Shown here piece by piece: positions 30,855 through 43,770 of a stretch of 64,000 bases of DNA; the first letter of the stretch is position 1, and every line of letters starts with the position of its first letter. Source of the stretch: a virus (taxonomy: Duplodnaviria > Heunggongvirae > Uroviricota > Caudoviricetes > Demerecviridae); IMG/VR virus record IMGVR_UViG_2974620381_000001, positions 48,928 through 112,927 of that record; one strand, 5' to 3'. The notes beneath the pieces are model-generated. The model was not told the DNA's origin and ran no database searches. It saw only the letters and a program-made list of their open reading frames with translations. The translations under genes were made by a program, and so were the position numbers.

Positions 30855-30926
30855 GCCGTCCTAGTATAATTGGTATTATCAAGCCGTAACTGGTGGAAGA
30901 TGTAGGTTCGAATCCTACGGTCGGTA
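30855..30926 (+). tRNA. tRNA-like element; canonical T-arm, anticodon arm not resolvable
   Basis: T-arm GTAGG-TTCGAAT-CCTAC at 30902-30918; acceptor GCCGTCC/GGTCGGT with one U-U mismatch; no encoded CCA. Confidence 0.3.
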
Positions 30927-31428
30927 AGAACTGGATAACTGATGCTTTTAACGTAAAAGCTTCCGAGGTTAGTTGCGCACTGCCTAAACCACGCGGTAGT
31001 TGGTTCCAGACTAACCAACCAGTCTGCTGAATAGTTTTATTACGATTTAACTATGTCCAGACTAAAGAAGAACTTTAGAAGGTATTCTAGGATAGTGAAG
31101 TTCTTTCTCCATATCGGAGTAGTTTTTCAGGCTATCCATAAAGTGGGAAATGCTGACATGAGAGATGTCACTAATGGTGCACAATAGCACAGGTAATTCG
31201 CGATAACTCCTGTTGAGTAGCAGCAAAAGGCGGGAAGTCATGACCCCAAGCCTAACCGAGTCCTCAATATACCGCAGGACATAACCACTAAGTCACCCTG
31301 ACTTAAACTGGAAAATAATAGACGTTACTGTATTTTGTCTTGAAATACTTAATGAGTGAGACTTATGACTCTCCCGGTATCGTCTGTATTTTTAAGAGTT
31401 TTTACGAGAGTTCTTAAAAATACTTAAA

Positions 31429-31500
31429 CGGGGTGTAGTCTAAGGGAGAGGCAGGAGTCTTCTAAATTCCTTTATGCAGGTTCGAATCCTGTCACCTCGG
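31429..31500 (+). tRNA. tRNA-Arg (anticodon TCT)
   Basis: Hand-folded cloverleaf: acceptor CGGGGTG/CACCTCG, anticodon loop CTTCTAA, T-loop TTCGAAT, encoded CCA 31501-31503. Confidence 0.7.
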
Positions 31501-31537
31501 CCAATTTTATTAACTGTAACTAAAACAAAGGAAATAT

Positions 31538-32485
31538 ATGTTTGCTACTAAAAATATGAAAGAACTGACTTCTGAGCAGAAAGTAATTCGTACTATTAAA
31601 CGTTGGGGTATTGGTGCTGTAGTTGGTTTAGCAGGTTTAATCCTAGCTCTTAATTCATATACTATTGTTTCTGATGGTACGGTTAAAACCCAAACATTCC
31701 TGGGTAAAGTAGACCCTAATCCAGTATTGCCGGGTTTCCATCTTGTAAACCCGTTTGCATCTTTCGATACTTTTAGTACAAAAGATATTGCTGTAAAATT
31801 AGATAAACTTCAGGTTCCTAGTCAGGATAAATTTAAATCCACTGTTGACCTGACTGTTATGTTGCAGTTTGATGGTTCTAAGGCACCAATTAACCGTATT
31901 AACGCAGGTACTCAGGATCAGGCGCTAGACAAGTATGTAACTGAAAAATTACTGTCTACTATTCGTGAGTTTGGTAAGTCTGTACCTAAAGCACAAGATT
32001 TGTTTGATGCTAAAATTCAGGCTCAATTGCAAACTGCAATTCAACAGGAAGTTGAAGAGTATGCACGCCCATATGGTTATACAGTTAAGCAGGTATTCCT
32101 TCAGGATATTACTTTGCCACCAGTAATCATGGAACAGGTACAGAATACCAAAGTTCGTGAAGAGCAAGTTAATGCTGCGAAAGCTGAACTGGTTCGTGTT
32201 GAACAAGAAGCACAGCAGAAGGTTAAACAAGCAGAAGCAGATCGCGAAGCTCGTAATAACCAAGCTATTGCTAACGAACGTGACGCAGATGCTAAACTAT
32301 ATGCAGCTAAGAAAGAAGCTGAAGCTAACGCCGCATTGCAACGTACCATTACTCCTGAGATGATTCGCTGGAAGCAACTGGAAGTTGAAATGATTCGTGC
32401 TCAGAAATACCAAGGTGGTGTACCTCAAACTGTGGTTGGTACTGGCTACGATGGCCAAATGATCATGGATATGCGTAATAAATAA
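31538..32485 (+). CDS. SPFH/band-7 (prohibitin/HflC-like) membrane protein
   Basis: 315 aa; N-terminal TM helix, SPFH domain, long E/Q/A-rich coiled coil; tandem terminators 32508-32545 and 32562-32600. Confidence 0.65.
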   Translation: MFATKNMKELTSEQKVIRTIKRWGIGAVVGLAGLILALNSYTIVSDGTVKTQTFLGKVDPNPVLPGFHLVNPFASFDTFSTKDIAVKLDKLQVPSQDKFKSTVDLTVMLQFDGSKAPINRINAGTQDQALDKYVTEKLLSTIREFGKSVPKAQDLFDAKIQAQLQTAIQQEVEEYARPYGYTVKQVFLQDITLPPVIMEQVQNTKVREEQVNAAKAELVRVEQEAQQKVKQAEADREARNNQAIANERDADAKLYAAKKEAEANAALQRTITPEMIRWKQLEVEMIRAQKYQGGVPQTVVGTGYDGQMIMDMRNK

Positions 32486-32507
32486 TATCCGTACGTAACA
32501 TCTGAAG

Positions 32508-32600
32508 TAAGCCCTGCGTTCCCTGGAGAGCGCAGGGCTTTTCTGTATTTAAGATAAAAGAAAAGCCCCTAAGTCTTTCGACTAGGGGCTTTATTGTTTG
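32508..32600. terminator. two tandem hairpin terminators between convergent SPFH and Q-rich genes (second one bidirectional)
   Basis: GCCCTGCG...CGCAGGGC+TTTTCTG and GCCCCTAG...CTAGGGGC flanked by T-runs on both strands. Confidence 0.6.
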
Positions 32601-32809
32601 GTTCCTTAGAACCATATACTCTTGTTACAGCAACCACCCATACGGGAGGCCAATCTTGACTGAAAATCTACTCTAGGGGGCAGGATAAGAGTAGGCTTAA
32701 AGGCAAACGGATTGAACGCCGGTATTTGCGTAAACATTGCTGGAGAGCAACAACGTGCTACAGGCATTGGGCAGCACGAAACAGATTTTCTGCAACACAT
32801 AATTTCTCC

Positions 32810-33238
32810 TTAGGAGTTATTACCACCATTTTGAGCTTTTGCAACTTGGCTTTGGCAGAAGCTATTAAACTTACCCATAAGTGATACAAGCTGTTTCCCA
32901 TCCTCTGTCTTTGCGAAGTCTTCGAAAAGGGCTAGTACTGCCTGTCCTTCCGCAGAAACCTGCGGTTGTTGGGTTTGCTGCTGAACTTGCTGCTGAACTT
33001 GCTGCTGCGGCATCTGTTGCTGCATTTGTTGAGGCATTTGCGACTGCCCGCTCATTTGCTGCACCATTTGCATAGGACTCACACTCCCAGGGTTTTGCTG
33101 GAGTTGTTGCTGCATCTGTTGCGCTTCTGCTAAACGCTGTTGCAATTGTTGTAGGTAGGGGTTATCCAGACCAGGCATGGGCTGCTGGGAGCCCATGCTT
33201 TGATTAAGTCCGTTATTTACAAAACCATATTTACTCAT
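32810..33238 (-). CDS. Gln-rich low-complexity protein
   Basis: 142 aa; >35% Q; GGGGAGGA SD right after upstream stop; GC-richer codon usage than flanks. Confidence 0.5.
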   Translation of the reverse strand: MSKYGFVNNGLNQSMGSQQPMPGLDNPYLQQLQQRLAEAQQMQQQLQQNPGSVSPMQMVQQMSGQSQMPQQMQQQMPQQQVQQQVQQQTQQPQVSAEGQAVLALFEDFAKTEDGKQLVSLMGKFNSFCQSQVAKAQNGGNNS

Positions 33239-33259
33239 AATGGGCTCCTCCCCTTAATA

Positions 33260-34255
33260 TTAAGCCGGCAGTTTAGCCTGCAGACCAGCCAGAGTCTGAG
33301 TGATAGCACCAAGACTTACAGCGATTTGATTAATTACCTGACCGTTAGCACCGTTACCCGCAGCGATTGCTTCACGTAGACGACATGCATCTAACTCATC
33401 CTGAATACGAGCAGTAGTTACACCAGCGATCGCAGTCTGAAGTTCACAGCAACATTCAGCGATCTGACGTTCCAGAGAGTTCTGGTTAGCACACATCTGA
33501 GCCTGAACAGCGGCAAACTGATTATTAGTTTGTAAAGTCTGCTGGAAAGCGATCTGTGCAGAATCAAACTTATCTTGTGCACGAGCTATCTGATTAGCTG
33601 CGAAAGATTGATCAATCTGGCGAGAAAGATCGAACTGACCCTGAATAACATTGCGAGTTTCCTGGCAGATCTGATTAGACAGATTAGCACCTGTACCATA
33701 GATCGTAGTTAGTACAGACTGAGTATCACGGCTCTGGTTTTGGGATGTCTGGCTAAAACCATTGTTAACTGCGCTTAAAACAGCTCCAGTACCCTGGTTA
33801 GCTTCTGTACGAGTAGTGTTAATAGCTGCTAGAATACTAGCGGTATCTTGGTTCTGAAGTACTGCATCAACTGCGGTACCATCACCAACTACACCACGTC
33901 CACCGAATCCACCGAATCCACCGAATCCGCCTGTTAGTAGAGCACCGATTAGGATAGCTCCGAATAGTCCCATACCTTCACCACCGAAAGCACCTGCGTT
34001 TGCTGGGTAACCACCCAGTAGGCCAGGGAAGCCACTAGTGAATACGTTTACTGGTTCTTGCATTTTATGTTTTCCATATTTATGACAATGTTCATCATCA
34101 TCTTCTTCTTCATCATCGTGTTCACGATGTTTCTCTTCGTAGGCTCTGACCTTCTCCCACTTTTTCTTATCTGATTCCTCGTGACGGTGCAGTTCTGCTG
34201 CAACGCTAGCGACGGTCTCAGGACTCTTAGCTACTTCTTCTGTCATTTTTGACAC
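33260..34255 (-). CDS. low-complexity protein: acidic/His N-terminus, Gly-rich hydrophobic segment (GGFGGFGGFGG), Q/N/T-rich C-terminal region
   Basis: 331 aa; own sigma70-like promoter TTGACA-17-TAAAGT on minus strand (34308-34336), AGGAGGTG SD. Confidence 0.55.
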   Translation of the reverse strand: MSKMTEEVAKSPETVASVAAELHRHEESDKKKWEKVRAYEEKHREHDDEEEDDDEHCHKYGKHKMQEPVNVFTSGFPGLLGGYPANAGAFGGEGMGLFGAILIGALLTGGFGGFGGFGGRGVVGDGTAVDAVLQNQDTASILAAINTTRTEANQGTGAVLSAVNNGFSQTSQNQSRDTQSVLTTIYGTGANLSNQICQETRNVIQGQFDLSRQIDQSFAANQIARAQDKFDSAQIAFQQTLQTNNQFAAVQAQMCANQNSLERQIAECCCELQTAIAGVTTARIQDELDACRLREAIAAGNGANGQVINQIAVSLGAITQTLAGLQAKLPA

Positions 34256-34307
34256 CTCCTAGTATGTAGAAAATGTGTGTCTCTTTGATCACTCATCCAT
34301 AACATAT

Positions 34308-34336
34308 ACTTTATACTACTCCAGCGAAAATGTCAA
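34308..34336 (-). promoter_or_regulatory. sigma70-like promoter TTGACA-17-TAAAGT for the 331-aa low-complexity protein gene
   Basis: Hexamers on minus strand; differs from the T5 early-promoter style used elsewhere. Confidence 0.5.
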
Positions 34337-34452
34337 GGGGTCTTTAAAAATTGCCCCCGGATTTTTAGTGGGGTCACAAATTTTGGTCCTCACCACTTAT
34401 CTGCTACCCTTAAGCGCCCTATGATTTTCCTCTAAAAAGTTAAAAAATTTGA

Positions 34453-34481
34453 TTGCTTGAATGCTAAATTCTCTGTATAAT
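34453..34481 (+). promoter_or_regulatory. T5-type promoter
   Basis: TTGCTT-17-TATAAT. Confidence 0.6.
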
Positions 34482-34511
34482 ATATCTATAAATTTGAGAG
34501 AGGAACCAAAT

Positions 34512-35030
34512 ATGAATGTTGATGAGCTAACACAGCACCTCTTATCTATGGGATTTGATACTGATAAATATCATTGCTGGTTAAGTCCGGAAGGATGGCT
34601 AACAGTCCCGTTGTATGATTTCTCTGGGATGTTGAGGGGCTATCAAACTTATAATCCTTCTGCTCCAAAAGGTCATGGTAAGTGCCCCTTTGAAGCTAAA
34701 TACTTTACTTATTCTACCACCCAGTGTGTATGGGGACTAGAAACTCTCAATGGAGATGAAAAAGTAGTATTGATCGCTGAATCTGTATTTAAGGCAGTTG
34801 CGTTACATAACGCTGGGTATCCAGCCCTGGCAATGTTGGGTTCTTCTCCAGGAAAAGCGTTATTAAAGCAACTGAAATTACTACCTTTTAAATTGGTAGC
34901 TGTCGGAGATAATGATCCTGCGGGTGAAAAATTTGCTAGAAAATTAAACGGCTTTGTTTCTCCTGTAGATGTGGATGAGATGTCTACCGAAAACTTGAAA
35001 AATTTTCTTGCTATGAAGCTAAATTTCTAA
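34512..35030 (+). CDS. Toprim-domain protein (primase-like)
   Basis: 172 aa; VVLIAESVFKAVAL (E) ... LVAVGDNDPAGEKFARKL (DxD) Toprim motifs; start moved to ATG 34512 after GAGAGGAACC (track start is inside promoter). Confidence 0.5.
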   Translation: MNVDELTQHLLSMGFDTDKYHCWLSPEGWLTVPLYDFSGMLRGYQTYNPSAPKGHGKCPFEAKYFTYSTTQCVWGLETLNGDEKVVLIAESVFKAVALHNAGYPALAMLGSSPGKALLKQLKLLPFKLVAVGDNDPAGEKFARKLNGFVSPVDVDEMSTENLKNFLAMKLNF

Positions 35031-35036
35031 TATAAT
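35008..35036 (+). promoter_or_regulatory. T5-type promoter driving tRNA-Ser/tRNA-Met
   Basis: TTGCTA-17-TATAAT overlapping 3' end of the Toprim gene. Confidence 0.6.
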
Positions 35037-35051
35037 ATATCTTATAAATTC

Positions 35052-35137
35052 GGAAGAATAGCATAACGGTATTGCAGCAGATTGCTAATCTGTCGGTTTG
35101 AAATATAGCCTTGTGGGTTCGATTCCCACTTCTTCCG
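35052..35137 (+). tRNA. tRNA-Ser (anticodon GCT)
   Basis: Acceptor GGAAGAA/TTCTTCC, anticodon loop TTGCTAA, long variable arm, T-loop TTCGATT, CCA encoded. Confidence 0.7.
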
Positions 35138-35146
35138 CCAGATTTT

Positions 35147-35221
35147 GGTTCTCAAGCTCATATGGTATGAGCACCCGGCTCATAACCGGAAGGTACGTAG
35201 GTTCGAATCCTCGGGGAGCCA
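35147..35221 (+). tRNA. tRNA-Met (anticodon CAT; fMet, Met or Ile2 not distinguishable)
   Basis: Acceptor GGTTCTC/GGGAGCC (2 G-U), anticodon loop CTCATAA, T-loop TTCGAAT, CCA encoded. Confidence 0.6.
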
Positions 35222-35243
35222 CCAAATTAAATAAGGACAATTA

Positions 35244-35432
35244 ATGGAATTATTCATAGTTTCTGTTAAATTTGCACAAGATAGAGAACGTTCGGACGAG
35301 TTTAAACAAGGGTACAGACTAGTAAAGGCTACATCCGAACTCCATGCTATGGACAAAGTAGTAGACTATATGTATAATGTAGAAGATGTTTACTACGTCA
35401 ATGCTTTAGAAGCCTCAAAAGTAATTGACTAA
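35244..35432 (+). CDS. hypothetical protein
   Basis: 62-aa ORF after tRNA pair. Confidence 0.4.
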   Translation: MELFIVSVKFAQDRERSDEFKQGYRLVKATSELHAMDKVVDYMYNVEDVYYVNALEASKVID

Positions 35433-35441
35433 GGAGACTAT

Positions 35442-35627
35442 ATGTCCAAGTTTCAAGAACTCAAGCAAGAGCTAGAAGAGTGTGCCTGCCCTGAGTGTAG
35501 GGGAATTGGTGAAAGTTCTGATGCAGAAGCAGGAGATACTTTTTGCAATATCTGGGTTTGCCCAAATTGCAATGGTACAGGTATTAATCCTAACTGTGGT
35601 ATTTCTCTAGATATTGAAAGAGGATAA
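35442..35627 (+). CDS. small zinc-finger protein with DnaJ-type CxxCxGxG repeats
   Basis: 61 aa; CPECRGIG and CPNCNGTG motifs. Confidence 0.45.
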   Translation: MSKFQELKQELEECACPECRGIGESSDAEAGDTFCNIWVCPNCNGTGINPNCGISLDIERG

Positions 35628-35727
35628 TACCTGTGAAACTAAAAGATTATTATATTGGTTGGTTTGTGGGACTAGTAGTAGGATTTTCACTAGGCTATAA
35701 TATGTATCAACTAATAAACTGATTACA

Positions 35728-35801
35728 CGGGGGGTGTAATCGAATTGGCATAGGTACTGGACTTAAAATTCAGGTTTTGTGGGTTCGAATCCCACCACCC
35801 C
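35728..35801 (+). tRNA. tRNA with anticodon TAA (Leu-type anticodon) but short variable arm
   Basis: Acceptor GGGGGTG/CACCCCT, anticodon stem CTGGA/TTCAG with loop CTTAAAA, T-arm GTGGG-TTCGAAT-CCCAC, CCA encoded; D-arm poorly paired. Confidence 0.5.
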
Positions 35802-35821
35802 TACCAAATTAAGGAAATAAG

Positions 35822-35989
35822 ATGTATAGACATCCACCTCCGCCAACACGTCGTTCTAGGGAAGTCATCCTTATGGAATTGACTAAAAACTTCAAGGCAA
35901 CTCTTGAAGATAGAGATCTAGGCACGGATGAAGATATTGATTTTATTTGTAGACTATTAAAGATGAAACTGGAGAAACAACATGGCTAA
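35822..35989 (+). CDS. hypothetical small protein
   Basis: 55-aa ORF with AAGGA SD, overlaps next ORF start. Confidence 0.35.
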   Translation: MYRHPPPPTRRSREVILMELTKNFKATLEDRDLGTDEDIDFICRLLKMKLEKQHG

Positions 35990-36188
35990 TCCTGAAATTA
36001 CCGCACAACGTTTCATGCTTAAAGGCATGATTGCTGAGGCAGGTATAACTCAAGAGGTTGCAGATTTTCATAAGCAATTTCTTGACATTATAACTCTAGC
36101 TAAAGAGACTGGAGAAAAAGAACATGGAGCGGCAATTATGGCTATATCTCTTATTAGTCTAGACTTGGCTGAAGAATCTGGAGTTTAG
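35982..36188 (+). CDS. hypothetical protein
   Basis: 68-aa ORF. Confidence 0.4.
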   Translation: MANPEITAQRFMLKGMIAEAGITQEVADFHKQFLDIITLAKETGEKEHGAAIMAISLISLDLAEESGV

Positions 36189-36278
36189 CTCCTCCAAACA
36201 GAATTTTTAAAAATGTACTTGCCTTTTGCTTTAAATTTCTGATATAATAGTTATATAAATTGATGAAGGAGTTAACTA

Positions 36279-36554
36279 ATGCAAAATCGTGTTATAGCAG
36301 CTGGTATTGAAAGTGCAATCTGTAAATCCTGGGAAGGCTGGGAAGGTGAGATTGAATGGCTTTATTTCTATGATGTAGAACTTCTGCCGGAAGTTAAAGC
36401 TAAATGTGTTGAAGCTGGCATGGCTCCGGATGCAAAAGCTGATATTGATATTTCAATGTCTGAACTTAAAGGTCGTGTAGTTACCGTTAGTAATGAGGGG
36501 GAAGAAGTTTTCGAACTTCCATTCTCCTTAACTGTCACTCCTAAGTTCGACTAA
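36279..36554 (+). CDS. hypothetical protein
   Basis: 91-aa ORF after promoter ~36219-36249. Confidence 0.45.
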   Translation: MQNRVIAAGIESAICKSWEGWEGEIEWLYFYDVELLPEVKAKCVEAGMAPDAKADIDISMSELKGRVVTVSNEGEEVFELPFSLTVTPKFD

Positions 36555-36590
36555 CTAATACAGCACTGAGCAAGTTCTTTAAAATTTGAC

Positions 36591-37987: not shown

Positions 37988-37989
37988 TA

Positions 37990-38069
37990 GGGTCGTTAGC
38001 CAAGCGGTTTGGCGGTGGACTGTTAATCCATGTCGAAAGACAACGTAGGTTCGAATCCTACACGGCCCG
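37990..38069 (+). tRNA. tRNA-Asn (anticodon GTT) with extended variable arm
   Basis: Acceptor GGGTCGT/ACGGCCC, anticodon loop CTGTTAA, 13-nt variable arm, T-loop TTCGAAT, CCA encoded. Confidence 0.65.
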
Positions 38070-38174
38070 CCAAATTCTGTGTAGAGTTAAGTAAACCGGT
38101 AGCCAACCAGCTATCATTGCTGATATCGAATTCAGCCACAGATACCATTTTCATTAATAACTGAGGAAACAAGC

Positions 38175-38360
38175 ATGTCCAAGAATGTAATTGCGCAGCT
38201 AGAAGTTCATCGTGATAGCACTATCAACAATATTGAAGTTGAGAAGAAATACATCGAAGAACTTAAACATGATATACTAGTAAGTCTTAATCGTCTTAAT
38301 GTACGAAAAGAGTTTCTTAAGGAACTTAATGCAGCTATTGAAAAACTCAAAGCTGAGTAA
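38175..38360 (+). CDS. hypothetical coiled-coil protein
   Basis: 61-aa ORF. Confidence 0.4.
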   Translation: MSKNVIAQLEVHRDSTINNIEVEKKYIEELKHDILVSLNRLNVRKEFLKELNAAIEKLKAE

Positions 38361-38369
38361 ATGAATTAT

Positions 38370-38443
38370 GCGACCGGGGCTGGCTTGGTAATGGTACTCC
38401 CCTGTCACGGGAGAGAATGTGGGTTCGAATCCCATCGGTCGCG
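38370..38443 (+). tRNA. tRNA-Asp (anticodon GTC)
   Basis: Acceptor GCGACCG/CGGTCGC, anticodon stem-loop CTCCC-CTGTCAC-GGGAG, T-loop TTCGAAT, CCA encoded. Confidence 0.75.
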
Positions 38444-38629
38444 CCAAACAATTAGGGTACAGAGTAGGTAAAGGTAGGGGAGGTCACATATGGTCTTTAG
38501 ACGGATATGCTCTGGGGCTTCCGACTAGAAAGCTGCTTTACCGCGCCCTAGCCACAATAATTAAGCAAATCCCTCTTTTTCACAGGAGAGGGTATTTGAA
38601 GAAATTCTTACGAGAGATTCTTCAAATAT

Positions 38630-38702
38630 ACATCCATAGCTCAATGGTTAGAGCTACCGCCTCTTAAGCGGAGGGTTCTAGGTTCAAGTCCTAGTGGGTG
38701 TA
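38630..38702 (+). tRNA. tRNA-Lys (anticodon CTT)
   Basis: Acceptor ACATCCA/TGGGTGT, D-stem GCTC/GAGC, anticodon loop CTCTTAA, T-loop TTCAAGT, CCA encoded. Confidence 0.65.
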
Positions 38703-38731
38703 CCAAACTAAACTAGTACGAGAAATACGCT

Positions 38732-39079
38732 ATGATTAATGCTAAAGAAGAGTTGTTACTTGCCCTAAAGAATACTAAGTCTGAAGTTAAGTGTATTAAG
38801 ATAGAATTCGGTTATTATGGGGACAAAGAAGTCTGGGTATTACCAGTAGGTTATACAGAAAAAGATATTGAAGATTTTCTAAATAATCTAGACTTTAAAT
38901 ATGATTCTGGTTTCGGTGGACAATTGCTTTATGGTAACGTATGGTTTACTGATGGAACTTGGTTAGAACGTGGTGAATATGATGGTTCTGAATGGTGGGA
39001 ATATAAGACTACACCAGCAATCCCTGAGGAATGCCGAACAATTAATGGTGAAGTAGATAATACTTTACGGTTAAACTAA
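38732..39079 (+). CDS. hypothetical protein
   Basis: 115-aa ORF. Confidence 0.45.
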   Translation: MINAKEELLLALKNTKSEVKCIKIEFGYYGDKEVWVLPVGYTEKDIEDFLNNLDFKYDSGFGGQLLYGNVWFTDGTWLERGEYDGSEWWEYKTTPAIPEECRTINGEVDNTLRLN

Positions 39080-39201
39080 TAAAATTTCAGTGCAGAACAC
39101 GGAGCTAGCAATTCGGAAGTGCTGACTCATGATAAGCTGCCTATGTACTTGCGAAGCGGTCGTGTCCAAGACTCGGACTCTTGCACTGAAAACAATCAAA
39201 C

Positions 39202-39322
39202 ATTCTAGCGTGGTTGATGGGGAAACCAGCTTGGCGAGGGCAGAAGCTCGTTCGATTCGAGTGAAAGAATGGTTCTCGTAAGTCCGCACAAGTGATAACA
39301 GGTTCGAGTCCTGTCTAGAATG
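39202..39322 (+). ncRNA. tRNA-like element with ~48-nt insertion (121 nt between matching acceptor strands)
   Basis: 5' ATTCTAG (39202-08) is exact complement of 3' CTAGAAT (39315-21) flanking T-arm ACAGG-TTCGAGT-CCTGT (39298-39314); D-arm TGGT/ACCA present; contains a second T-arm-like hairpin GCTCG-TTCGATT-CGAGT at 39246-62. Confidence 0.3.
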
Positions 39323-39471
39323 ACACTATAAAGTTTACTTATTATGTAGGTTCCGGTAGACCGGCGGGTCTATTCTGGCATTTAAGAGAGGTCTCGCAAG
39401 CCTCTTTGTCAGCCGTGGGGTTCATAGCCTCCAGGTGGCCTACACAATAAGTAAATTTATTAAAAATTCAT

Positions 39472-39500
39472 TTGCTATTCTGCTTAATTCTCTGTATAAT
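39472..39500 (+). promoter_or_regulatory. T5-type promoter
   Basis: TTGCTA-17-TATAAT. Confidence 0.6.
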
Positions 39501-39532
39501 ATATCTTATAAAGTGAAGAGAAGGAAAGCTAA

Positions 39533-39730
39533 ATGAAGAAAGTTTTATTACTATCTGTATTCCTACTTACTGGTTGTTTTAAATTTGACTCAACCATTAA
39601 TAAAGAGTATGAATTTGCTAAAAATTTCTGTGGCGGGGAGAGTAATATAAAGAATTTCTACATATATAGTACAATTCCTAGTACCGTTTATTGTGTAGAC
39701 GGACGAATTATTAATATTCCTCCACAATAA
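39533..39730 (+). CDS. small lipoprotein
   Basis: 65 aa; signal peptide with lipobox LLTGC; promoter 39472-39500. Confidence 0.45.
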   Translation: MKKVLLLSVFLLTGCFKFDSTINKEYEFAKNFCGGESNIKNFYIYSTIPSTVYCVDGRIINIPPQ

Positions 39731-39739
39731 AAGAATTAA

Positions 39740-39812
39740 CAGTGCGTAGCGCAGTTGGTAGCGTGGGAGCTTTGGATGCTTCGGGTCGCAGGTTCGAGTC
39801 CTGCCGCACTGA
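39740..39812 (+). tRNA. tRNA-Pro (anticodon TGG)
   Basis: Acceptor CAGTGCG/CGCACTG, anticodon loop TTTGGAT, T-loop TTCGAGT, CCA encoded. Confidence 0.75.
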
Positions 39813-39821
39813 CCAAACAAT

Positions 39822-39896
39822 TGCGGGTTAGATCTCTGGTAGAGATCACTAGTCTCATAAGCTAGAAAGAGGTAGGTTCGATTCCTGCACCCGCTT
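39822..39896 (+). tRNA. tRNA with anticodon CAT (Met or Ile2)
   Basis: D-arm GATC-TCTGGTAGA-GATC, anticodon stem-loop CTAGT-CTCATAA-GCTAG, T-loop TTCGATT, CCA encoded; terminal acceptor pair mismatched. Confidence 0.6.
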
Positions 39897-39919
39897 CCAT
39901 TTTAATAGAGGATTTCGAA

Positions 39920-40087
39920 ATGAAAGTATTTCGATTAGTAGTAAGTGACAAACGTTTAGGTAAGAATACATCAAAATCCTTACTTGCTCATTACGGTAAA
40001 AATTGGGATGAAGTAATGGTAGAGTTTAGTACTAATCACCCCTACTTAAAAGTCCACTCTATTAAAGAAGTATACAATGGTTACTAA
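39920..40087 (+). CDS. hypothetical small protein
   Basis: 55-aa ORF with GAGGA SD. Confidence 0.35.
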   Translation: MKVFRLVVSDKRLGKNTSKSLLAHYGKNWDEVMVEFSTNHPYLKVHSIKEVYNGY

Positions 40088-40088
40088 T

Positions 40089-40164
40089 AGATCGCTAGCT
40101 CAATAGGTTTAGTAGCATCCGACTTTTAATCGGAAGGTTCTGGGTTCGAGTCCCAGGCGATCTA
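40089..40164 (+). tRNA. tRNA-Lys (anticodon TTT)
   Basis: Acceptor AGATCGC/GCGATCT, anticodon stem-loop TCCGA-CTTTTAA-TCGGA, T-loop TTCGAGT, CCA encoded. Confidence 0.7.
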
Positions 40165-40185
40165 CCAATTTCAAGAAAAATGCAG

Positions 40186-40215
40186 TTGCTTAATGCTTAA
40201 TTTCTTGTTATAATA
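40186..40215 (+). promoter_or_regulatory. T5-type promoter upstream of HNH-endonuclease leader
   Basis: TTGCTT-18-TATAAT. Confidence 0.55.
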
Positions 40216-40459
40216 TTTATATAAATTGATGAGAAGAGATCCTCATCATAGTTCACTAAGGTATTAGCTCGACCTAGGACTGGCTGCCAAAAAGCACGAT
40301 CCCTACGATTCGGGAGAAGTTCTAGATTAGTCCACTAGATTCAGCGGCAACTGAATAGTGTATCGGGTTTGCGAGATGACGCGGTTCCTTCCGCTTGAAG
40401 CGAAGGTGCTGTAGTTACGCCGAGCTAATAGCCTTAGTAAACTTACAGGGGTTAACGCA

Positions 40460-40846
40460 GTGTGTACAAAAACATGTAGAGCCTGTGGGAATGAATATCC
40501 GTTAACAACCGAATATTTTTATTCGAATGGATTTACTCCTAATGGCACAAAGAAGTGGAAGCCAACATGTAAAGCATGTGAAAAAGCTGAACGAGTAGCT
40601 GGACATGAAGAATTAATTAAAGAAGTATTTCCTGTATTAGAATGTAGTATTTGTGGATATAATAGGTGTAAACAAGCCCTAGATTTCCACCATACTAATC
40701 CAGAAGAAAAGGAATACTCCATTGCAAGGTTTAGAACTTCTCGTAGAAACAGAGAAGTAGTAATAGCAGAACTTAAAAAGTGCGTACTATTATGCTCTAA
40801 CTGCCATAGAGAAGTACATGCTGGATTAATAAATTTGGGCGAATAG
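40460..40846 (+). CDS. HNH endonuclease
   Basis: 128 aa, GTG start; Cys-rich N-terminus and HNH motif DFHHTNPEEK...NCHREVH. Confidence 0.65.
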   Translation: MCTKTCRACGNEYPLTTEYFYSNGFTPNGTKKWKPTCKACEKAERVAGHEELIKEVFPVLECSICGYNRCKQALDFHHTNPEEKEYSIARFRTSRRNREVVIAELKKCVLLCSNCHREVHAGLINLGE

Positions 40847-40908
40847 TGTCAGCGGGAGCACACCAGACTTGCAATCTGGTAGGGAGGGTTCGAGTCCCTC
40901 TTTGTCCA
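40837..40908 (+). tRNA. tRNA-Ala (anticodon TGC)
   Basis: Acceptor GGGCGAA/TTTGTCC (G-U pairs), anticodon stem-loop CCAGA-CTTGCAA-TCTGG, T-loop TTCGAGT, CCA encoded. Confidence 0.7.
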
Positions 40909-40916
40909 CCAAACAT

Positions 40917-40990
40917 GCGTGATTGATGGAATTGGCATACATACCGTCCTTAGAAGTCGGGTTTTGAGGGTTCGAATCCCTTGTCACGCA
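40917..40990 (+). tRNA. tRNA with anticodon TAG (Leu-type anticodon) but short variable arm
   Basis: Acceptor GCGTGAT/GTCACGC, anticodon loop CTTAGAA (stem 4/5), T-loop TTCGAAT, CCA encoded. Confidence 0.5.
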
Positions 40991-40995
40991 CCAAA

Positions 40996-41069
40996 TTTGA
41001 TGGTCAGAGTAAATTAAACCTACTATCTCGGTTGAGCTGTTTTAATGGGTTCGAATCCCAGCGAGGCGT
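40996..41069 (+). tRNA. tRNA-like element, not foldable (possible pseudogene)
   Basis: Canonical T-arm TGGG-TTCGAAT-CCCA at 41046-41060 but no matching acceptor strand or anticodon arm; no CCA. Confidence 0.3.
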
Positions 41070-41105
41070 AACTGCCTGGCGTGATAGAGGCATCATCTTA
41101 TTATT

Positions 41106-41193
41106 GGAAGAGCAAATCGAATTGGCGACGAAAACCGCTTGGAAAGTGGCTGACTGGTAAAACGGCTTGAGAGTTCAAATCTCTCCTCTTCCG
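41106..41193 (+). tRNA. tRNA-Ser (anticodon GGA)
   Basis: Acceptor GGAAGAG/CTCTTCC, 3-bp D-stem, anticodon loop TTGGAAA, long variable arm, T-loop TTCAAAT, CCA encoded. Confidence 0.6.
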
Positions 41194-41203
41194 CCAAACA
41201 AAT

Positions 41204-41290
41204 GGAAGGTAGGGCGTAGTGGTACGCAACTAGTCTTGAAAACTAGCCCGCTGTAGTGATACGGTGATGGTTCGACTCCATTACCTTCCT
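41204..41290 (+). tRNA. tRNA-Ser (anticodon TGA)
   Basis: Acceptor GGAAGGT/ACCTTCC, D-stem GCG/CGC, anticodon stem-loop CTAGT-CTTGAAA-ACTAG, 19-nt variable arm, T-loop TTCGACT, CCA encoded. Confidence 0.7.
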
Positions 41291-41312
41291 CCAATTAACT
41301 ATAAGGAATCAT

Positions 41313-41486
41313 TATGAGCAAAACAGTTACTGTAACAATGAAGGACGGTAAAAAATTTAAAGCATGCCTTCATGAAACAGATAAGGGATGGATGGCTTAT
41401 TTGCCACACCTAGATTCCACTGGGTATGGAATGACCCAACGTGAAGCTATTGTTGATGCTTTAAATGAGGCTTCTGCTGGTTTATA
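41313..41486 (+). CDS. hypothetical small protein
   Basis: 57-aa ORF, AAGGAA SD. Confidence 0.35.
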
Positions 41487-41855
41487 AAAATTCTTGAAGT
41501 ATGCCGGAATCGGTAGACGGGGCTGCCTAAAAGGTTTATAGGGAACATCCACTCCCTGCAATATACCTCATAAAGCGGCTGAGATAAATGGTCTATCTCG
41601 TGAAGGTTCAAGTCCTTCTGCTTCTTGATATATCTATGGCTCAAAGTGTAACGGTGCTATTTGATGCTCTTAGTAAGACTTTCCCGACATGCGTTCGGGA
41701 GTAAGCTGCTAAGACTAGAGTAGAAGAGTTTCTGAGAGCCGCCACAATTGAAAATTCGTACTCGTCTTGAGCTGCGTGCAACAGGAGATAACTTGATTAG
41801 TATTCTAGAACATGCTAATTGAGGATGGTTTCGCTAACCCTGCGAGTTTTCAATT

Positions 41856-41929
41856 GTGGCTATATCATAATTGGTTAATGATCCTGATTGTGAATCAGGC
41901 CTATGTGGATTCGAATTCCACTAGCCACC
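41856..41929 (+). tRNA. tRNA-His (anticodon GTG)
   Basis: Acceptor GTGGCTA/TAGCCAC, D-stem TCAT/ATGA, anticodon stem-loop CCTGA-TTGTGAA-TCAGG, T-loop TTCGAAT, CCA encoded. Confidence 0.75.
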
Positions 41930-41957
41930 CCAGATTAACTTAAATAGGAAATAAAAT

Positions 41958-42155
41958 ATGGCTGAGTTCTGCAAACAATGCTCCATTGATATGTGGGGCA
42001 GAGATACTGGTGACTTATCTGGTTTGATTACAGAAGCTGAGGTCAAAGAAGGTTATGGTGCAGTTGTGGTTTGCGAAGGATGCGGAGTTATTCGAGTAGA
42101 TCATGAAGGCAAACGTTTAGAAGAACCGGAAAACTTAGGAGAAACAAATGAGTAA
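41958..42155 (+). CDS. hypothetical Cys-containing protein
   Basis: 65 aa; CKQC...CEGCG. Confidence 0.4.
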   Translation: MAEFCKQCSIDMWGRDTGDLSGLITEAEVKEGYGAVVVCEGCGVIRVDHEGKRLEEPENLGETNE

Positions 42156-42384
42156 TGCTTTAATTAGTGAAATTATGTTAACACGTCTTGCAGAACTGCA
42201 AACTCTTCGAGATGAATCTCAGAATAACTTATCCTACCATAAACAGATGGTAGATACTCTTACTACTCGTATTGAAACTTACGAGCGTGATATTGCAGCA
42301 TTACAAGCTCTTTTCTCTGTATCAGCACCAGATACACTAGAACAGCCTGTCGTATCTCAGCCGGTAGAAACAGCATCTAGTTAA
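42148..42384 (+). CDS. hypothetical coiled-coil protein
   Basis: 78-aa ORF overlapping previous stop. Confidence 0.4.
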   Translation: MSNALISEIMLTRLAELQTLRDESQNNLSYHKQMVDTLTTRIETYERDIAALQALFSVSAPDTLEQPVVSQPVETASS

Positions 42385-42393
42385 TAGCATTCT

Positions 42394-42466
42394 TGGGGTG
42401 TAGATCAATTGGCAGATCGTCGGCCTCTGACTCCGAAGGTTCCTGGTTCGATCCCAGGCACTCCAG
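42394..42466 (+). tRNA. tRNA-Gln (anticodon CTG)
   Basis: Acceptor TGGGGTG/CACTCCA, D-stem GATC/GATC, anticodon loop CTCTGAC, T-loop TTCGATC, CCA encoded. Confidence 0.6.
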
Positions 42467-42475
42467 CCAAACAAT

Positions 42476-42548
42476 TGGAGAGTAGTGTAACGGTTAGCAC
42501 AACGGCCTTTGACTCCGTTAATGGTAGGTTCGATTCCTCCTTCTCCAG
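42476..42548 (+). tRNA. tRNA-Gln (anticodon TTG)
   Basis: Acceptor TGGAGAG/TTCTCCA, D-stem GTGT/GCAC, anticodon loop CTTTGAC, T-loop TTCGATT, CCA encoded. Confidence 0.6.
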
Positions 42549-42558
42549 CCAAATAATA

Positions 42559-42632
42559 AGCGGTTAAGCACACGGGTTGTGTCGCAGGCCTTCCAAGCCT
42601 CGCTGAGTAGGGTTCGATTCCCTCTAGCCGCT
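42559..42632 (+). tRNA. tRNA-Gly (anticodon TCC)
   Basis: Acceptor GCGGTTA/TAGCCGC, anticodon loop CTTCCAA, T-loop TTCGATT, CCA encoded. Confidence 0.6.
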
Positions 42633-42651
42633 CCAACTTTAAGGAAACATT

Positions 42652-42903
42652 ATGCACGTTTTTGAGTTTCGTAATAAAAGTACCGATAAACGAGTTATTG
42701 TTATTGGAGAAACATACCGAGCATACGAACAAACTGACGGCTCTGTTATCCTGAATGATGAGAAAGGAGGTTTTAGCTTTTATCCAGAAGAACCTTATGA
42801 AGAGTTTCGAAAACAATTTAACCTAGACTGGAGAAAGCATTTAAACACTGTTGCTTCATCTGTAGTATTGCCAACTACCAGTACTGTACTCTCTAATGGC
42901 TGA
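42652..42903 (+). CDS. hypothetical protein
   Basis: 83-aa ORF. Confidence 0.4.
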   Translation: MHVFEFRNKSTDKRVIVIGETYRAYEQTDGSVILNDEKGGFSFYPEEPYEEFRKQFNLDWRKHLNTVASSVVLPTTSTVLSNG

Positions 42904-43060
42904 CAACCTAAAAGTCAAGATTGATAAACAAAAGAAACGTGTAGAAGTAGAGATTGGTGAAGAACGTGTAGCCTTCACCTTTGAATTTCTTCAGCAGTTG
43001 GCAATGGCAGTTATGACTGATAAGTCTCCTGTTATTGAAAAAGAAATCCCGTTAAAATAA
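42896..43060 (+). CDS. hypothetical small protein
   Basis: 54-aa ORF; ATG overlaps previous stop (ATGGCTGA). Confidence 0.35.
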   Translation: MADNLKVKIDKQKKRVEVEIGEERVAFTFEFLQQLAMAVMTDKSPVIEKEIPLK

Positions 43061-43070
43061 CGGGATCATC

Positions 43071-43141
43071 GCTCCTAAAGCATTGCTGGCGATGCAGTTG
43101 CCTTGTAAGCATCTGAACCGGGTTCGATTCCTGGTGGGAGC
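43071..43141 (+). tRNA. tRNA-Thr (anticodon TGT)
   Basis: Acceptor GCTCCTA/TGGGAGC, D-stem GCAT/ATGC, anticodon loop CTTGTAA, T-loop TTCGATT, CCA encoded. Confidence 0.7.
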
Positions 43142-43160
43142 ACCAAATTTAAAAATTCAT

Positions 43161-43189
43161 TTGCCTTCTCTCTTATTTCTTGTTATAAT
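43161..43189 (+). promoter_or_regulatory. T5-type promoter
   Basis: TTGCCT-17-TATAAT. Confidence 0.55.
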
Positions 43190-43219
43190 ATCTAATTAAA
43201 TTAATGAGAGGGAAACCAA

Positions 43220-43510
43220 ATGAAACGTTATCTTTCTATTGTATTCCAAACTGGTGGCCAAAGATATACCTATGAATTTCCATCTTCTTGGAAAATCAAA
43301 GAAGGTGATCAAGTAGTTGTGCTAACTCCGCGTGAGGGATATAAAGTAGTAACGGTTAAACAAGTATTTCCAAAAGATCATGAGCCTGCTAGAGGCATCC
43401 GATATAAGATGATTCATGGTGTGGTTCGTCAAGTACCACGAACTGAGGTAGAAGTAGGTAAGAATGGAGAAACTAAATTCCATTATACTTCTTACCTAGA
43501 TAGTGTGTGA
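43220..43510 (+). CDS. hypothetical protein
   Basis: 96 aa; promoter 43161-43189. Confidence 0.45.
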   Translation: MKRYLSIVFQTGGQRYTYEFPSSWKIKEGDQVVVLTPREGYKVVTVKQVFPKDHEPARGIRYKMIHGVVRQVPRTEVEVGKNGETKFHYTSYLDSV

Positions 43511-43525
43511 TGTAAATATTTTAAT

Positions 43526-43599
43526 GCTTCGGTAGCTTAGCGATCTAAAGCACTCGGCTGATAACCGAGAGATCGGGGGTTTAAATCCCTCCCGGAGTA
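43526..43599 (+). tRNA. tRNA-Ile (anticodon GAT)
   Basis: Acceptor GCTTCGG/CCGGAGT, D-stem GCTT/AAGC, anticodon stem-loop CTCGG-CTGATAA-CCGAG, T-loop TTTAAAT, CCA encoded. Confidence 0.7.
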
Positions 43600-43698
43600 C
43601 CAAATTTAGGAATTAAGACTATGCGTCCAGGAAAGTTTAAAAAAGCTAATTGGTCTAAAGAGTATAAAGAATACTTACTTAGTCTAGTAAAATATAGC

Positions 43699-43770
43699 AG
43701 TTAGTTGGCAGAGTGGTTATGCACCTCCTTCATACGGAGCGACTACAGTGGTTCAAATCCACTACTAACT
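43699..43770 (+). tRNA. tRNA with anticodon CAT (Met or Ile2), third CAT copy
   Basis: Acceptor AGTTAGT/ACTAACT, anticodon loop TTCATAC, T-loop TTCAAAT, CCA encoded. Confidence 0.6.

Follow-up and report, generated by a model that had tools for sequence, protein, structure and literature searches.

Leucine tRNAs without the long variable arm in a T5-type phage tRNA cluster are probably working variants

According to the textbook view, every bacterial tRNALeu is long-armed, and two leucine-anticodon tRNA genes of a T5-related phage depart from it. The question which this locus raises is whether these two genes, together with other irregular tRNAs in their neighbourhood, are working tRNAs, nonfunctional copies or decoding-altered, even suppressor-like molecules, as was considered in an initial annotation based on folding by hand. 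The genes lie in one region of the window (the whole stretch of 64,000 nucleotides that was analysed):

30855..43774, plus strand: T5-type tRNA gene cluster, about 26 tRNA genes with tRNA-like stable RNAs and small ORFs, all on the plus strand

This region is 100% identical to that of Phage NBSal005, a T5 relative, and it shares with T5 the synteny, sequence identity (97-100% for many of the genes), CCA ends and interspersed stable RNAs. The count of about 25 tRNAs obtained by hand was close. ARAGORN finds 23 in the cluster and the Rfam tRNA model 25 at the gathering score, the additional ones being 30855-30926 and 35147-35221. One further gene, tRNAGly(UCC) at 42560-42635, emerges from the curated T5 record, so that the three sources together give a total of about 26 decoding tRNAs, plus several tRNA-like stable RNAs. 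A weak Ser(GGA)-like element is located at 41106-41195. In all decoders of the cluster, the CCA is encoded and the T and D loops are intact, and no stop-codon anticodon (CUA, UUA or UCA) occurs among the ARAGORN- or Rfam-called genes of the cluster, which speaks against suppressor-like tRNAs. Judged from sequence comparison, the odd tRNAs of the cluster are probably working, selected variants and not relics or recoding devices. While the T5-type tRNA cluster as such is already known, the class of armless leucine tRNAs is barely described.

The two leucine-anticodon genes are as follows:

35730..35806, plus strand: tRNALeu(UAA), armless (ARAGORN fold; Rfam 57.4 bits)
40917..40993, plus strand: tRNALeu(UAG), armless (ARAGORN fold; Rfam 47.5 bits)

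Both genes, with the leucine anticodons UAA and UAG, have in the ARAGORN folds a 3-bp D stem, an 11-nt D loop (GAAUUGGCAUA), A73 and an encoded CCA; U8 and U48 are also present in both. In place of the long arm of class II tRNAs, each contains a variable loop of five nucleotides, GUUUU. The Rfam model aligns both genes end to end in 74 nt, which leaves no long arm. The 5-nt loops seen by hand are thus confirmed by the two programs, and the covariance-model search, which could have restored long arms, shows that the short loops are real. For the UAA gene, initially placed at 35728-35801, the short loop stood, while the start had to be moved to 35730. The tRNALeu(UAG) has the anticodon loop CUUAGAA, with A37 where the host has G37, and one U·U in the anticodon stem; its RefSeq label is 'tRNA-OTHER'.

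Neither gene is peculiar to this phage. The tRNALeu(UAA) occurs at an identity of at least 99% in 293 phage records and of at least 95% in 326, and the tRNALeu(UAG), at an identity of at least 95%, in 162 phage records, BF23 and DT57C included, with a relative at about 84% identity in FelixO1-like phages. When viral contigs were scanned with a pattern in which the D loop, U33, A35 and the T loop were the only fixed parts, leucine anticodons were found in 253 of 254 matches. Among 203 well-folded viral copies, A73 and U8 are present in all, U48 in 202 and an encoded CCA in 142; armless tRNALeu was found in at least 155 distinct viral sequences. Two-sided changes were observed in 18 of 20 stem pairs. 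The fraction of paired cells was 99.4%, a percentage inflated by pre-filtering of the set for mostly paired stems, compared to 63% after shuffling and 34-44% when partners were slid, and the covariation score was 1.007 versus 0.251 (0 of 500 shuffles as high). The armless leucine tRNAs form a class that is large among viruses and shows strong compensatory covariation. This covariation, and the identity of the leucine genes in hundreds of phage records, argue against the proposal that they are nonfunctional or altered in decoding. In bacterial assemblies, the armless design is found mostly within dense tRNA arrays, and the Ser and Tyr tRNAs there are long-armed. Counts at the same loci point in the same direction, with long arms in 125/126 Ser and 50/51 Tyr genes from viral sequences, and in 67/70 and 35/36, respectively, from genomes.

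Can such a tRNA be charged by the host? According to published work, E. coli LeuRS reads A73 together with the geometry of the elbow, i.e., U8:A14, A15:U48, the position of G18G19 and the following A, with both the arm and the anticodon dispensable (PMC9976931). Minimalist and SELEX studies also showed that the arm is dispensable for the E. coli enzyme; according to a later report, it charges only long-arm tRNALeu. The elbow and core determinants are all found in the phage genes (U8:A14, A15:U48, G18G19 and an A after G19-N20; the tertiary pairs are inferred from sequence). Moreover, tRNAscan isotype models gave Leu as the top score for the leucine-anticodon tRNAs, armless or long-armed, of the FelixO1-like phage Sf14 (PMC12482277). 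Because LeuRS reportedly reads neither the anticodon nor the arm, it is predicted that the armless tRNAs are probably leucylated by the host enzyme. They are built as tRNALeu bodies of the host type, the long arm alone being replaced by a 5-nt loop that ends with U48. It is proposed that the LeuRS of the enterobacterial host would charge them via A73 and the elbow, and that they would decode UUA/UUG and CUA/CUG, perhaps all CUN. These codons are in heavy use in the AT-rich phage and in poor supply in the host; in the window ORFs, CUA makes up 22% and UUA 25% of leucine codons. Retention of all reported E. coli LeuRS determinants and the reading of codons overused by the phage are difficult to reconcile with nonfunctional genes. 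Like other T5 tRNAs, the armless ones may also replace host tRNAs destroyed by anti-phage nucleases. As a reason for the arm loss, we propose that leucine is the sole long-arm isotype with an arm-independent synthetase; the retention of arms by Ser and Tyr tRNAs of the same clusters would follow.

This explanation is the one we favour, with reasonable though not full confidence. Several points count against it. The only biochemically studied bacterial armless tRNALeu, the S. coelicolor tRNALeu(CAA), is not charged by E. coli LeuRS, an enzyme said to prefer, through its leucine-specific domain, tRNAs whose variable loop is large (PMC6614811); that tRNA has C48, where the phage armless genes have U48. 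Further points are the A37, the U·U stem pair and the 'tRNA-OTHER' label of the UAG species, the long-arm allele that T5 has at the same site, and the dispensability of the T5 tRNA region in laboratory hosts.

The best-surviving alternative would supplement the favoured explanation rather than replace it. It assumes that arm loss is an anti-defence adaptation, the long arm being a handle for toxins or nucleases, and we consider it possible but doubtful. It is known that the MenT3 toxin, from the AbiEii-related nucleotidyltransferase family, anchors on the long variable loop of tRNASer, and that grafting of this loop transfers sensitivity (PMC11541572). However, no known toxin targets tRNALeu via the arm, and MenT3 prefers Ser over Leu. 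A role in counter-defence was proven for two T5 tRNAs, as tRNALys defeats PARIS and tRNATyr defeats a retron effector (PMC11464382), and the armless class is concentrated in phages and in dense, mobile-looking tRNA arrays, with about 12% of viral tRNALeu genes carrying the D-loop motif being armless. On the other hand, the Ser and Tyr tRNAs in the same clusters have kept their long arms, and neutral loss or gene compaction fits a leucine-only pattern equally well. In a broader form, it can be speculated that phages and mobile arrays of many bacterial phyla have repeatedly and adaptively stripped the arm from leucine tRNAs alone, with charging left to ordinary LeuRS. Equally tentative is the suggestion that adaptive arm loss removes a handle for host tRNA-targeting toxins or for non-cognate enzymes.

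It is improbable that the armless tRNAs are charged with another amino acid, or charged poorly, so that decoding is altered. A class-I-shaped body with A73 could in principle suit other synthetases, and both the uncharged S. coelicolor tRNA and the atypical A37 of tRNALeu(UAG) can be quoted in support. The D-loop motif, however, is leucine-specific, since all but one of the armless and all but one of the long-arm matches have a leucine anticodon, and, as described above, the reported LeuRS determinants are all retained and the isotype models for Sf14 place Leu first. Furthermore, CUA and UUA together account for about 4% of all phage codons, so that mis-insertion would harm the whole proteome.

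Still less credible is the possibility that the armless leucine tRNAs, together with the mismatched Trp and Phe tRNAs, are decaying pseudogenes hitch-hiking in a dispensable region. The mismatched genes stand next to each other:

36865..36941, plus strand: tRNATrp(CCA) with tandem acceptor mismatches U2·U71 and U3·U70 (ARAGORN fold)
36949..37023, plus strand: tRNAPhe(GAA) with U28·U42 and U29·U41 in the anticodon stem, and G37

Both sets of U·U pairs had been noticed by hand, in the Trp acceptor and in the Phe anticodon stem, and they are real; the suggestion that they mark nonfunctional genes found no support. The tRNATrp retains A1-U72 and G73 as in the host trpT and is at least 99% identical in 239 phage records. 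Klebsiella phage SEL21 (81% identity) and, with U·U and C·U, a Pectobacterium My1-like contig have retained its mismatches, while in diverged relatives covariation is seen in the T stem and in the flanking pairs 4-69 to 7-66. The tRNAPhe is identical to T5 tRNAPhe at 73 of 75 positions, with the same anticodon arm; the U·U pairs are thus common to a tRNA whose recognition by E. coli PheRS was studied (PMC9976931). Judged from these comparisons, the mismatches of the Trp and Phe tRNAs belong to a conserved design.

What can be said in favour of decay is that T5 stays viable after deletion of its tRNA region, which is dispensable in laboratory hosts (PMC11464382), that RefSeq uses 'tRNA-OTHER' for some genes, and that true tRNA-like relics lie nearby, i.e., 30855-30926 and homologues of T5 RNA1, RNA2 and RNA3. 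Three of the irregular elements are listed below:

30855..30926, plus strand: tRNA-like element (Rfam 35.5 bits, anticodon arm skipped)
41493..41637, plus strand: T5 'RNA1' homologue (Rfam tRNA model 25.2 bits; 127/143 identical to T5 RNA1)
42560..42635, plus strand: tRNAGly(UCC) with irregular fold, 100% identical to T5 tRNAG1(UCC)

The first has acceptor, D and T arms, lacks a canonical anticodon arm and CCA, and lies inside a homologue of T5 'RNAX', a stable RNA; on the model alignment, it is not a decoder. The second lacks CCA and shows a long-arm Leu-like scaffold whose anticodon loop contains an insertion of 45 nt; it is annotated in T5 as 'tRNA-like stable RNA'. The tRNAGly(UCC) was called by neither ARAGORN nor the Rfam tRNA model; its best Rfam match is the tRNA-Sec model with 30.9 bits, below threshold. 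According to the T5 record, tRNAG1(UCC) is an effective amber suppressor once its anticodon is replaced. Against decay of the leucine, Trp and Phe genes stand the same sequences across hundreds of isolates, compensatory changes in diverged relatives, in which the Trp mismatches themselves are unchanged, the CCA ends and intact loops of all cluster decoders, and the study of T5 tRNAPhe as a PheRS substrate. The last alternative, that the peculiarities are artefacts of hand folding, as the initial annotation itself allowed, is refuted, since two independent programs, ARAGORN and Rfam, reproduce every one of them.

Three genes with the CAU anticodon, noted by hand at 35147, 39822 and 43699 as plausible fMet, Met and Ile2, are indeed at these positions:

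35147..35224, plus strand: tRNA(CAU) of Ile2 type, a lysidine-dependent AUA reader (Rfam 40.3 bits; missed by ARAGORN)
39822..39899, plus strand: tRNA(CAU), initiator-like, 77/78 identical to T5 tRNAfM, which is annotated 'initiator tRNA fMet'
43699..43774, plus strand: tRNA(CAU) of elongator Met type, 76/76 identical to T5 tRNAM(CAU)

The curated T5 record names the homologues Ile2, fMet and Met, in agreement with this proposal. The gene at 35147, with one bulged U in the T stem, is identical to T5 tRNAI2(CAU) at 76 of 78 positions, and both differences form a compensatory change from G30-C40 to A30-U40. The body elements of tRNAIle2 known from IleRS identity are A73, C29-G41 and U12-A23, and the gene has all three, as in E. 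coli ileX. The acceptor-stem determinants of TilS are C4-G69 and C5-G68; here C5-G68 is present and position 4-69 is U-A. In the gene at 39822, the U1·U72 mismatch (C1·A72 in E. coli metZ) leaves 1:72 unpaired, followed by G2-C71, C3-G70 and G4-C69; the acceptor G2C3G4G5G6 (GCGGG/CCCGC) matches metZ, and position 73 is U. An A11:U24 pair in the D stem is an initiator feature, and the D stem GAUC/GAUC provides it as in metZ. Three G-C pairs in a row were sought at the bottom of the anticodon stem of this gene and are absent, the stem being CUAGU/GCUAG. The gene at 43699 has U29-A41 as in E. coli metT. By sequence, the three genes are an Ile2 tRNA, an atypical initiator and an elongator Met tRNA.

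If the broader speculation on repeated, adaptive arm loss with charging by ordinary LeuRS is true, then the review claim that tRNALeu has a long arm everywhere but in animal mitochondria does not hold for a large part of the viral tRNALeu genes, and the report that E. coli LeuRS charges long-arm tRNALeu only would need revision. A family of E. coli and Salmonella phages carries armless tRNALeu with exactly the elements that E. coli LeuRS is reported to read, and provides a natural test of the conflicting claims about the arm. The 'tRNA-OTHER' label and the tRNAGly missed by standard finders are of concern for annotation. Compact tRNALeu scaffolds with anticodon-independent charging would possibly be useful in tRNA engineering, and the Trp acceptor mismatches, together with leucine-only arm loss, may offer leads on escape from tRNA-targeting defences.

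The closest known system is T5 itself (NC_005859 / AY543070, curated by the Ksenzenko group), whose cluster matches in position, order, strand and small ORFs and shares the stable tRNA-like RNAs RNA1, 2, 3, I, III, IV, 2H and X. Seventeen tRNA genes are 93-100% identical, including the three CAU genes, Phe, Gly(UCC), Tyr and Ser. The T5 genes Q1, Q2, S2, L1, V, K, P, N and W lack a close sequence match in the window. For most of these nine, another gene of the window carries the same anticodon; the window yielded no tRNAVal, while T5 has V. The Trp allele with the tandem U·U shows no sequence relationship to the Trp gene of T5. At the same site after tRNAAla, the T5 tRNALeu(UAG) is an 85-nt long-arm allele in place of the armless one, which indicates that the armless form is not required. 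T5 has no tRNALeu(UAA), and the hegA HNH endonuclease gene is located at that site.

The host genes leuW (UAG) and leuZ (UAA) of E. coli have the same 3-bp D stem, U8, A26, U48, A73, anticodons and 11-nt D-loop register (R-A-A-U-Y-G-G-Y-A-K-A). They differ in variable arms of 13 to 15 nt, compared with 5 nt in the phage genes, and in acceptor and anticodon stem sequences, which are unrelated; the phage anticodon loops begin with C32, and the UAG species has A37 versus host G37. Animal mitochondrial tRNALeu also lacks the long arm and has A73 and A14 as identity elements (PMC9976931), but a dedicated mitochondrial LeuRS serves it, its D and T loops are degenerate, and there is no evolutionary relationship. 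A tRNALeu(UAG) with a short variable loop occurs in a mycobacterial tRNA cluster, beside long-arm chromosomal copies and with an HNH endonuclease gene in the cluster; the host is different, and the case was mentioned in one sentence, with no analysis of identity elements, distribution or function (PMC6582537). The type I tRNALeu(CAA) of S. coelicolor has a 5-nt loop as well and coexists with long-arm tRNALeu under a single LeuRS. There, A73 is not a determinant, the loop ends with C48, and charging needs a specialised leucine-specific domain in the cognate LeuRS (PMC6614811). In the phage class, A73 and U48 are invariant, and charging has to come from the unmodified LeuRS of the host.

Both tRNALeu genes of the cluster, tRNALeu(UAA) at 35730-35806 and tRNALeu(UAG) at 40917-40993, lack the long variable arm and carry a 5-nt variable loop. 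The initial annotation had claimed this from hand folding, with the first gene starting at 35728; the ARAGORN secondary structures reproduced both short loops, and the start was corrected to 35730. A covariance-model search did not restore the long arms. Rfam aligns both genes without an arm; all 71 model positions are covered within 74 nt, which leaves no room for a hidden long arm in either gene. The errors of manual folding for which the initial annotation had allowed are ruled out, since ARAGORN and Rfam give the same features, and a folding artefact was rejected on these results. The suggestion of suppressor-like or recoding tRNAs was also rejected, as there are no stop anticodons among the ARAGORN and Rfam calls and these tRNAs read sense codons that are abundant.

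Sequence comparison showed that window positions 35000-43800 are 100% identical to NBSal005, a T5-like Tequintavirus, and the finding thus concerns the T5-type tRNA gene region, which is already well known. Over most of the length of this segment, 93-97% identity is also seen in many T5-like phages of Salmonella and Escherichia. In the homologous region of the curated T5 record (NC_005859), 25 tRNAs are annotated, each with a note on an in vivo amber-suppressor test, as well as eight stable RNAs that include several tRNA-like ones. Direct comparison revealed 17 T5 tRNA genes that are 93-100% identical to window genes and nine without a close sequence match (two Gln, Ser GGA, Leu UAG, Val, Lys UUU, Pro, Asn, and Trp). 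For most of these nine, the window has a gene of the same anticodon but unrelated sequence; no tRNAVal was seen in the window. The tRNA region of T5 and the window is a mosaic of alternative alleles. At the places where T5 has the HNH homing endonuclease genes hegA and hegC (7023-7607 and 12380-13063 of the T5 locus L002), the window carries tRNALeu(UAA) or other sequence. An unannotated ORF of 128 aa (40460-40846, +), with the motifs CxxC and CSNCHREVH, runs into the start of tRNAAla and had no match in a Pfam scan. Most gaps between the tRNA genes are occupied by homologues of T5 stable RNAs, 90-99% identical to T5:

30799-31428, + strand, RNAX homologue, containing the tRNA-like element 30855-30926
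38075-38147, + strand, RNA3 homologue
39201-39446, + strand, RNA2 with RNAIV homologue
40262-40433, + strand, RNA2H homologue
41638-41854, + strand, RNAI with RNAIII homologue

The hand-folded count of about 25 tRNAs was close to the 23 called by ARAGORN and the 25 matches to the Rfam tRNA model at gathering score, but one of the latter, 30855-30926, is not a decoder: it has acceptor, D, and T arms, lacks an anticodon arm and CCA, and lies inside the RNAX homologue. The D arm of the RNA1 homologue (41493-41637, +), CCGGAAUCGGUAGACGG, is of the Leu type; this RNA further has a long variable arm of 6 bp and good T and acceptor arms, its anticodon loop contains a 45-nt insertion, and CCA is absent. 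It resembles a long-arm tRNALeu scaffold that has been turned to another use. The annotation of tRNAs across the phage family of NBSal005 is inconsistent. RefSeq uses “tRNA-OTHER” for several conserved genes among 40917-40993, 39822-39899, 43699-43774, and 31429-31503 and leaves out the Trp, Phe, Asp, Ser(UGA), His, Thr, and Gly genes entirely, while records of identical sequence elsewhere name these genes by isotype.

The armless tRNALeu genes are conserved and widespread. For the UAG gene, 162 phage records, BF23 and DT57C among them, show ≥95% identity, and FelixO1-like phages ~84%; the UAA gene reaches ≥95% identity in 326 records. The long-arm tRNALeu(UAG) allele of T5, located in the same place after tRNAAla, is present at ≥95% identity in just 52 records, which makes the armless UAG allele the more frequent of the two among these phages. 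IMG/VR was scanned for a Leu-type D loop spaced from the T loop as in class-I tRNAs, with variable loops of two length classes (5 and 6 nt); in the anticodon loop U33 and A35 alone were fixed, and A73, U8, and U48 were not imposed. Leu anticodons were found in 253 of the 254 viral matches listed (UAG 118, CAA 62, UAA 47, AAG 10, GAG 9, CAG 7). Among the 203 listed matches with clean fixed-register folds, A73 and U8 are invariant (203/203 each), U48 is present in 202, and CCA is encoded in 142. There are at least 155 distinct armless tRNALeu sequences in viral contigs, with two-sided changes at 18 of the 20 stem pairs. The covariation was tested on a gapless 50-sequence alignment that included both window genes. 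Paired cells make up 99.4%, compared with 63% after shuffling and 34-44% with slid partners, pre-filtering of the set for mostly paired stems having raised the percentage paired and not the count of compensatory changes; the covariation score was 1.007 versus 0.251, and none of 500 shuffles reached it. Stem covariation in the viral armless class is therefore strong, and the conservation and covariation reject pseudogenes and speak against the nonfunctional tRNAs considered in the initial annotation. An unbiased further scan, permitting any variable-loop length, showed 15 of 120 loci (~12%) to be armless, the remainder having 11- to 17-nt arms.

The armless-Leu pattern was also scanned in bacterial assemblies, one genome per species. 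Many of the bacterial matches listed are contigs of metagenome-assembled genomes, and most lie in dense tRNA arrays (median of 8 tRNAs per 8 kb, with at least 4 tRNAs in 77 of the 120 loci listed). At armless-Leu loci, long arms are kept by Ser tRNAs (125/126 in viral and 67/70 in genome loci) and Tyr tRNAs (50/51 and 35/36), and Leu tRNAs are short (211/284 and 185/205), which indicates that the loss of the arm is specific to Leu. LeuRS is the one synthetase of the long-arm isotypes reported not to need the arm, and SerRS measures it (PMC9976931). The loss might be neutral or economical and allowed for Leu alone. It might also evade enzymes that grip the long arm, which would not exclude neutral loss; a precedent is toxin MenT3, which anchors on the tRNASer arm and needs it (PMC11541572). 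In phage and bacterial arrays with armless tRNALeu, ARAGORN also calls UAU-anticodon (“Ile”) tRNAs of 88-95 nt (outside the window, for example at loci L281 4025-4119 (-), L291 6928-7022 (-), L341 3785-3877 (-), and L286 3805-3896 (-)), with a class-I-like body, A73, CCA, and a 15- to 20-nt extra variable region in which GCGCCAGAUWAGCG is frequent. UAU tRNAs of ≥84 nt account for 15/36 in viral loci and 12/25 in genome loci, and the motif was not found in the window. One isotype (Leu) thus drops the arm, and another (UAU, “Ile”) appears to gain one.

For comparison with the host, E. coli leuW (UAG) and leuZ (UAA) were retrieved and folded beside the phage genes. The 3-bp D stem, U8, A26, U48 as the last variable position, and A73 are common to all of them, and the 11-nt D loop, AAAUUGGUAGA and GAAUCGGUAGA in the host and GAAUUGGCAUA in the phage, does not differ in register. 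The sole architectural difference is the 13- to 15-nt arm of E. coli tRNALeu, in place of which the phage tRNAs have GUUUU. The 2023 identity review gives as determinants of E. coli LeuRS A73, A15:U48, the placement of G18G19, a D-loop A, and D/T-loop tertiary contacts; the enzyme requires neither the anticodon nor the long arm, and arm-less variants stay active (PMC9976931). Judged by sequence, all reported elements are present in both phage Leu genes. However, E. coli LeuRS, whose leucine-specific domain is said to prefer large variable loops, failed to charge the armless S. coelicolor tRNALeu(CAA) (PMC6614811). The variable loop of the S. coelicolor tRNA ends with C48 and its A73 is not used, whereas U48 and A73 are invariant in the phage class, so this failure may not transfer to it; the S. 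coelicolor result nevertheless keeps the predicted charging step in doubt. A phage-encoded charging helper found no support in a Pfam scan of the gene adjoining the cluster (30136-30579, +), annotated as “tRNA amidotransferase”: the one match was YqeY-like, at a sub-threshold 25.4 bits against a cutoff of 27, and the name of the gene is weakly founded. Another point against ordinary leucine decoding is that the phage tRNALeu(UAG) has A37, in contrast to G37 in host CUN readers; among the matches listed, 61 of the 89 viral UAG copies carry A37.

In 49 long window ORFs, CUA constitutes 22% of Leu codons (20.3 per 1000) and UUA 25%. The respective values for E. coli K-12 are ~4% and ~13%, hence the two phage tRNAs serve those Leu codons whose over-use, compared with the host, is greatest; AUA (Ile2), AGA (Arg UCU), and GGA (Gly UCC) are likewise over-used. 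As ~4% of phage codons depend on CUA/UUA reading, mis-insertion is strongly disfavoured. The biology of the armless Leu tRNAs is probably ordinary decoding. Most probably, the armless genes would be transcribed together with the cluster and processed to CCA-ending tRNAs, which host LeuRS would leucylate via A73 and the elbow; the products would decode UUR and CUN, supplementing host tRNAs or, under attack, substituting for them. In the FelixO1-like phage Sf14, tRNAscan isotype scores rank Leu first for the Leu UAG, UAA, and CAA genes (PMC12482277). T5 tRNAs are moreover proven to act in counter-defence, tRNALys countering PARIS and tRNATyr a retron effector (PMC11464382).

Other peculiarities of the initial annotation were also borne out. 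The three CAT-anticodon genes were confirmed, and the proposed fMet, Met, and Ile2 identities agree with the names of their T5 homologues: 35147 is identical to tRNAI2 (adjoining Ser GCU) at 76/78 positions, 39822 to tRNAfM (adjoining Pro) at 77/78, and 43699 to tRNAM (adjoining Ile GAU) at 76/76. At the sequence level, comparison with E. coli ileX, metZ, and metT is consistent with these names. The 35147 gene has C29-G41, U12-A23, A73, one bulged U in the T stem, and, relative to tRNAI2, a compensatory change from G30-C40 to A30-U40; 43699 has U29-A41, the same as metT. The 39822 gene has an unpaired 1:72 (U·U), a GCGGG acceptor, and A11:U24, as metZ; the absence of the three anticodon-stem G-C pairs and the presence of U73 make it an atypical initiator. 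The two acceptor mismatches of tRNATrp are U2·U71 and U3·U70 in the ARAGORN fold. This allele is ≥99% identical in 239 phage records. Its relatives in Klebsiella phage SEL21 (81% identity) and a Pectobacterium My1-like contig still have mismatches at positions 2:71 and 3:70, as U·U with U·U or U·U with C·U, although co-variation is seen in pairs 4-69 to 7-66 and in the T stem; the 3' strand always ends with UUU-G-CCA in the alleles compared. Such conservation indicates selection for a weak acceptor end, and one guess is escape from toxins that read the acceptor stem. In tRNAPhe, the fold shows U28·U42 and U29·U41, a tandem U·U identical to that of T5 tRNAPhe, the recognition of which by E. coli PheRS was already studied (PMC9976931).

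The tRNAGly(UCC) gene (42560-42635, +) is 100% identical to T5 tRNAG1, which is annotated as an effective amber suppressor upon anticodon change. Neither ARAGORN nor the Rfam tRNA model detects it; among Rfam models, tRNA-Sec fits it best (30.9 bits, below threshold), and it has A8, a 4-bp T stem, and extra bases separating the D and anticodon stems. At 83 nt, tRNAAsn(GUU) (37990-38072, +) shows the reverse oddity to armless Leu, an enlarged variable region (12 nt) in an isotype whose loop is normally short; T5 tRNAAsn has 78 nt and an unrelated sequence. A weak long-arm tRNA-like sequence at 41106-41195 (+), with anticodon GGA, G73, and CCA, scores only 19.7 bits with the tRNA-Sec model. It has the same position as T5 tRNASer(GGA), annotated as not convertible to a suppressor, and is unrelated to it in sequence.

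The cluster itself is a member of the previously known T5-type tRNA region. Within the literature covered, to which older T5/BF23 papers did not belong, the material bearing on armless tRNALeu in phages amounted to a single sentence about a mycobacterial tRNA cluster (PMC6582537) and the work on S. coelicolor, by which armless tRNALeu was already known in a bacterial setting (PMC6614811). There, no description was found of a Leu-specific armless class, widespread across phages and tRNA arrays, that retains an E. coli-type identity set, and a prior one in the older T5/BF23 literature is possible. A recent review states the opposite generalisation on the tRNALeu arm (PMC9976931). An armless phage tRNALeu contradicts a textbook statement and is readily testable.
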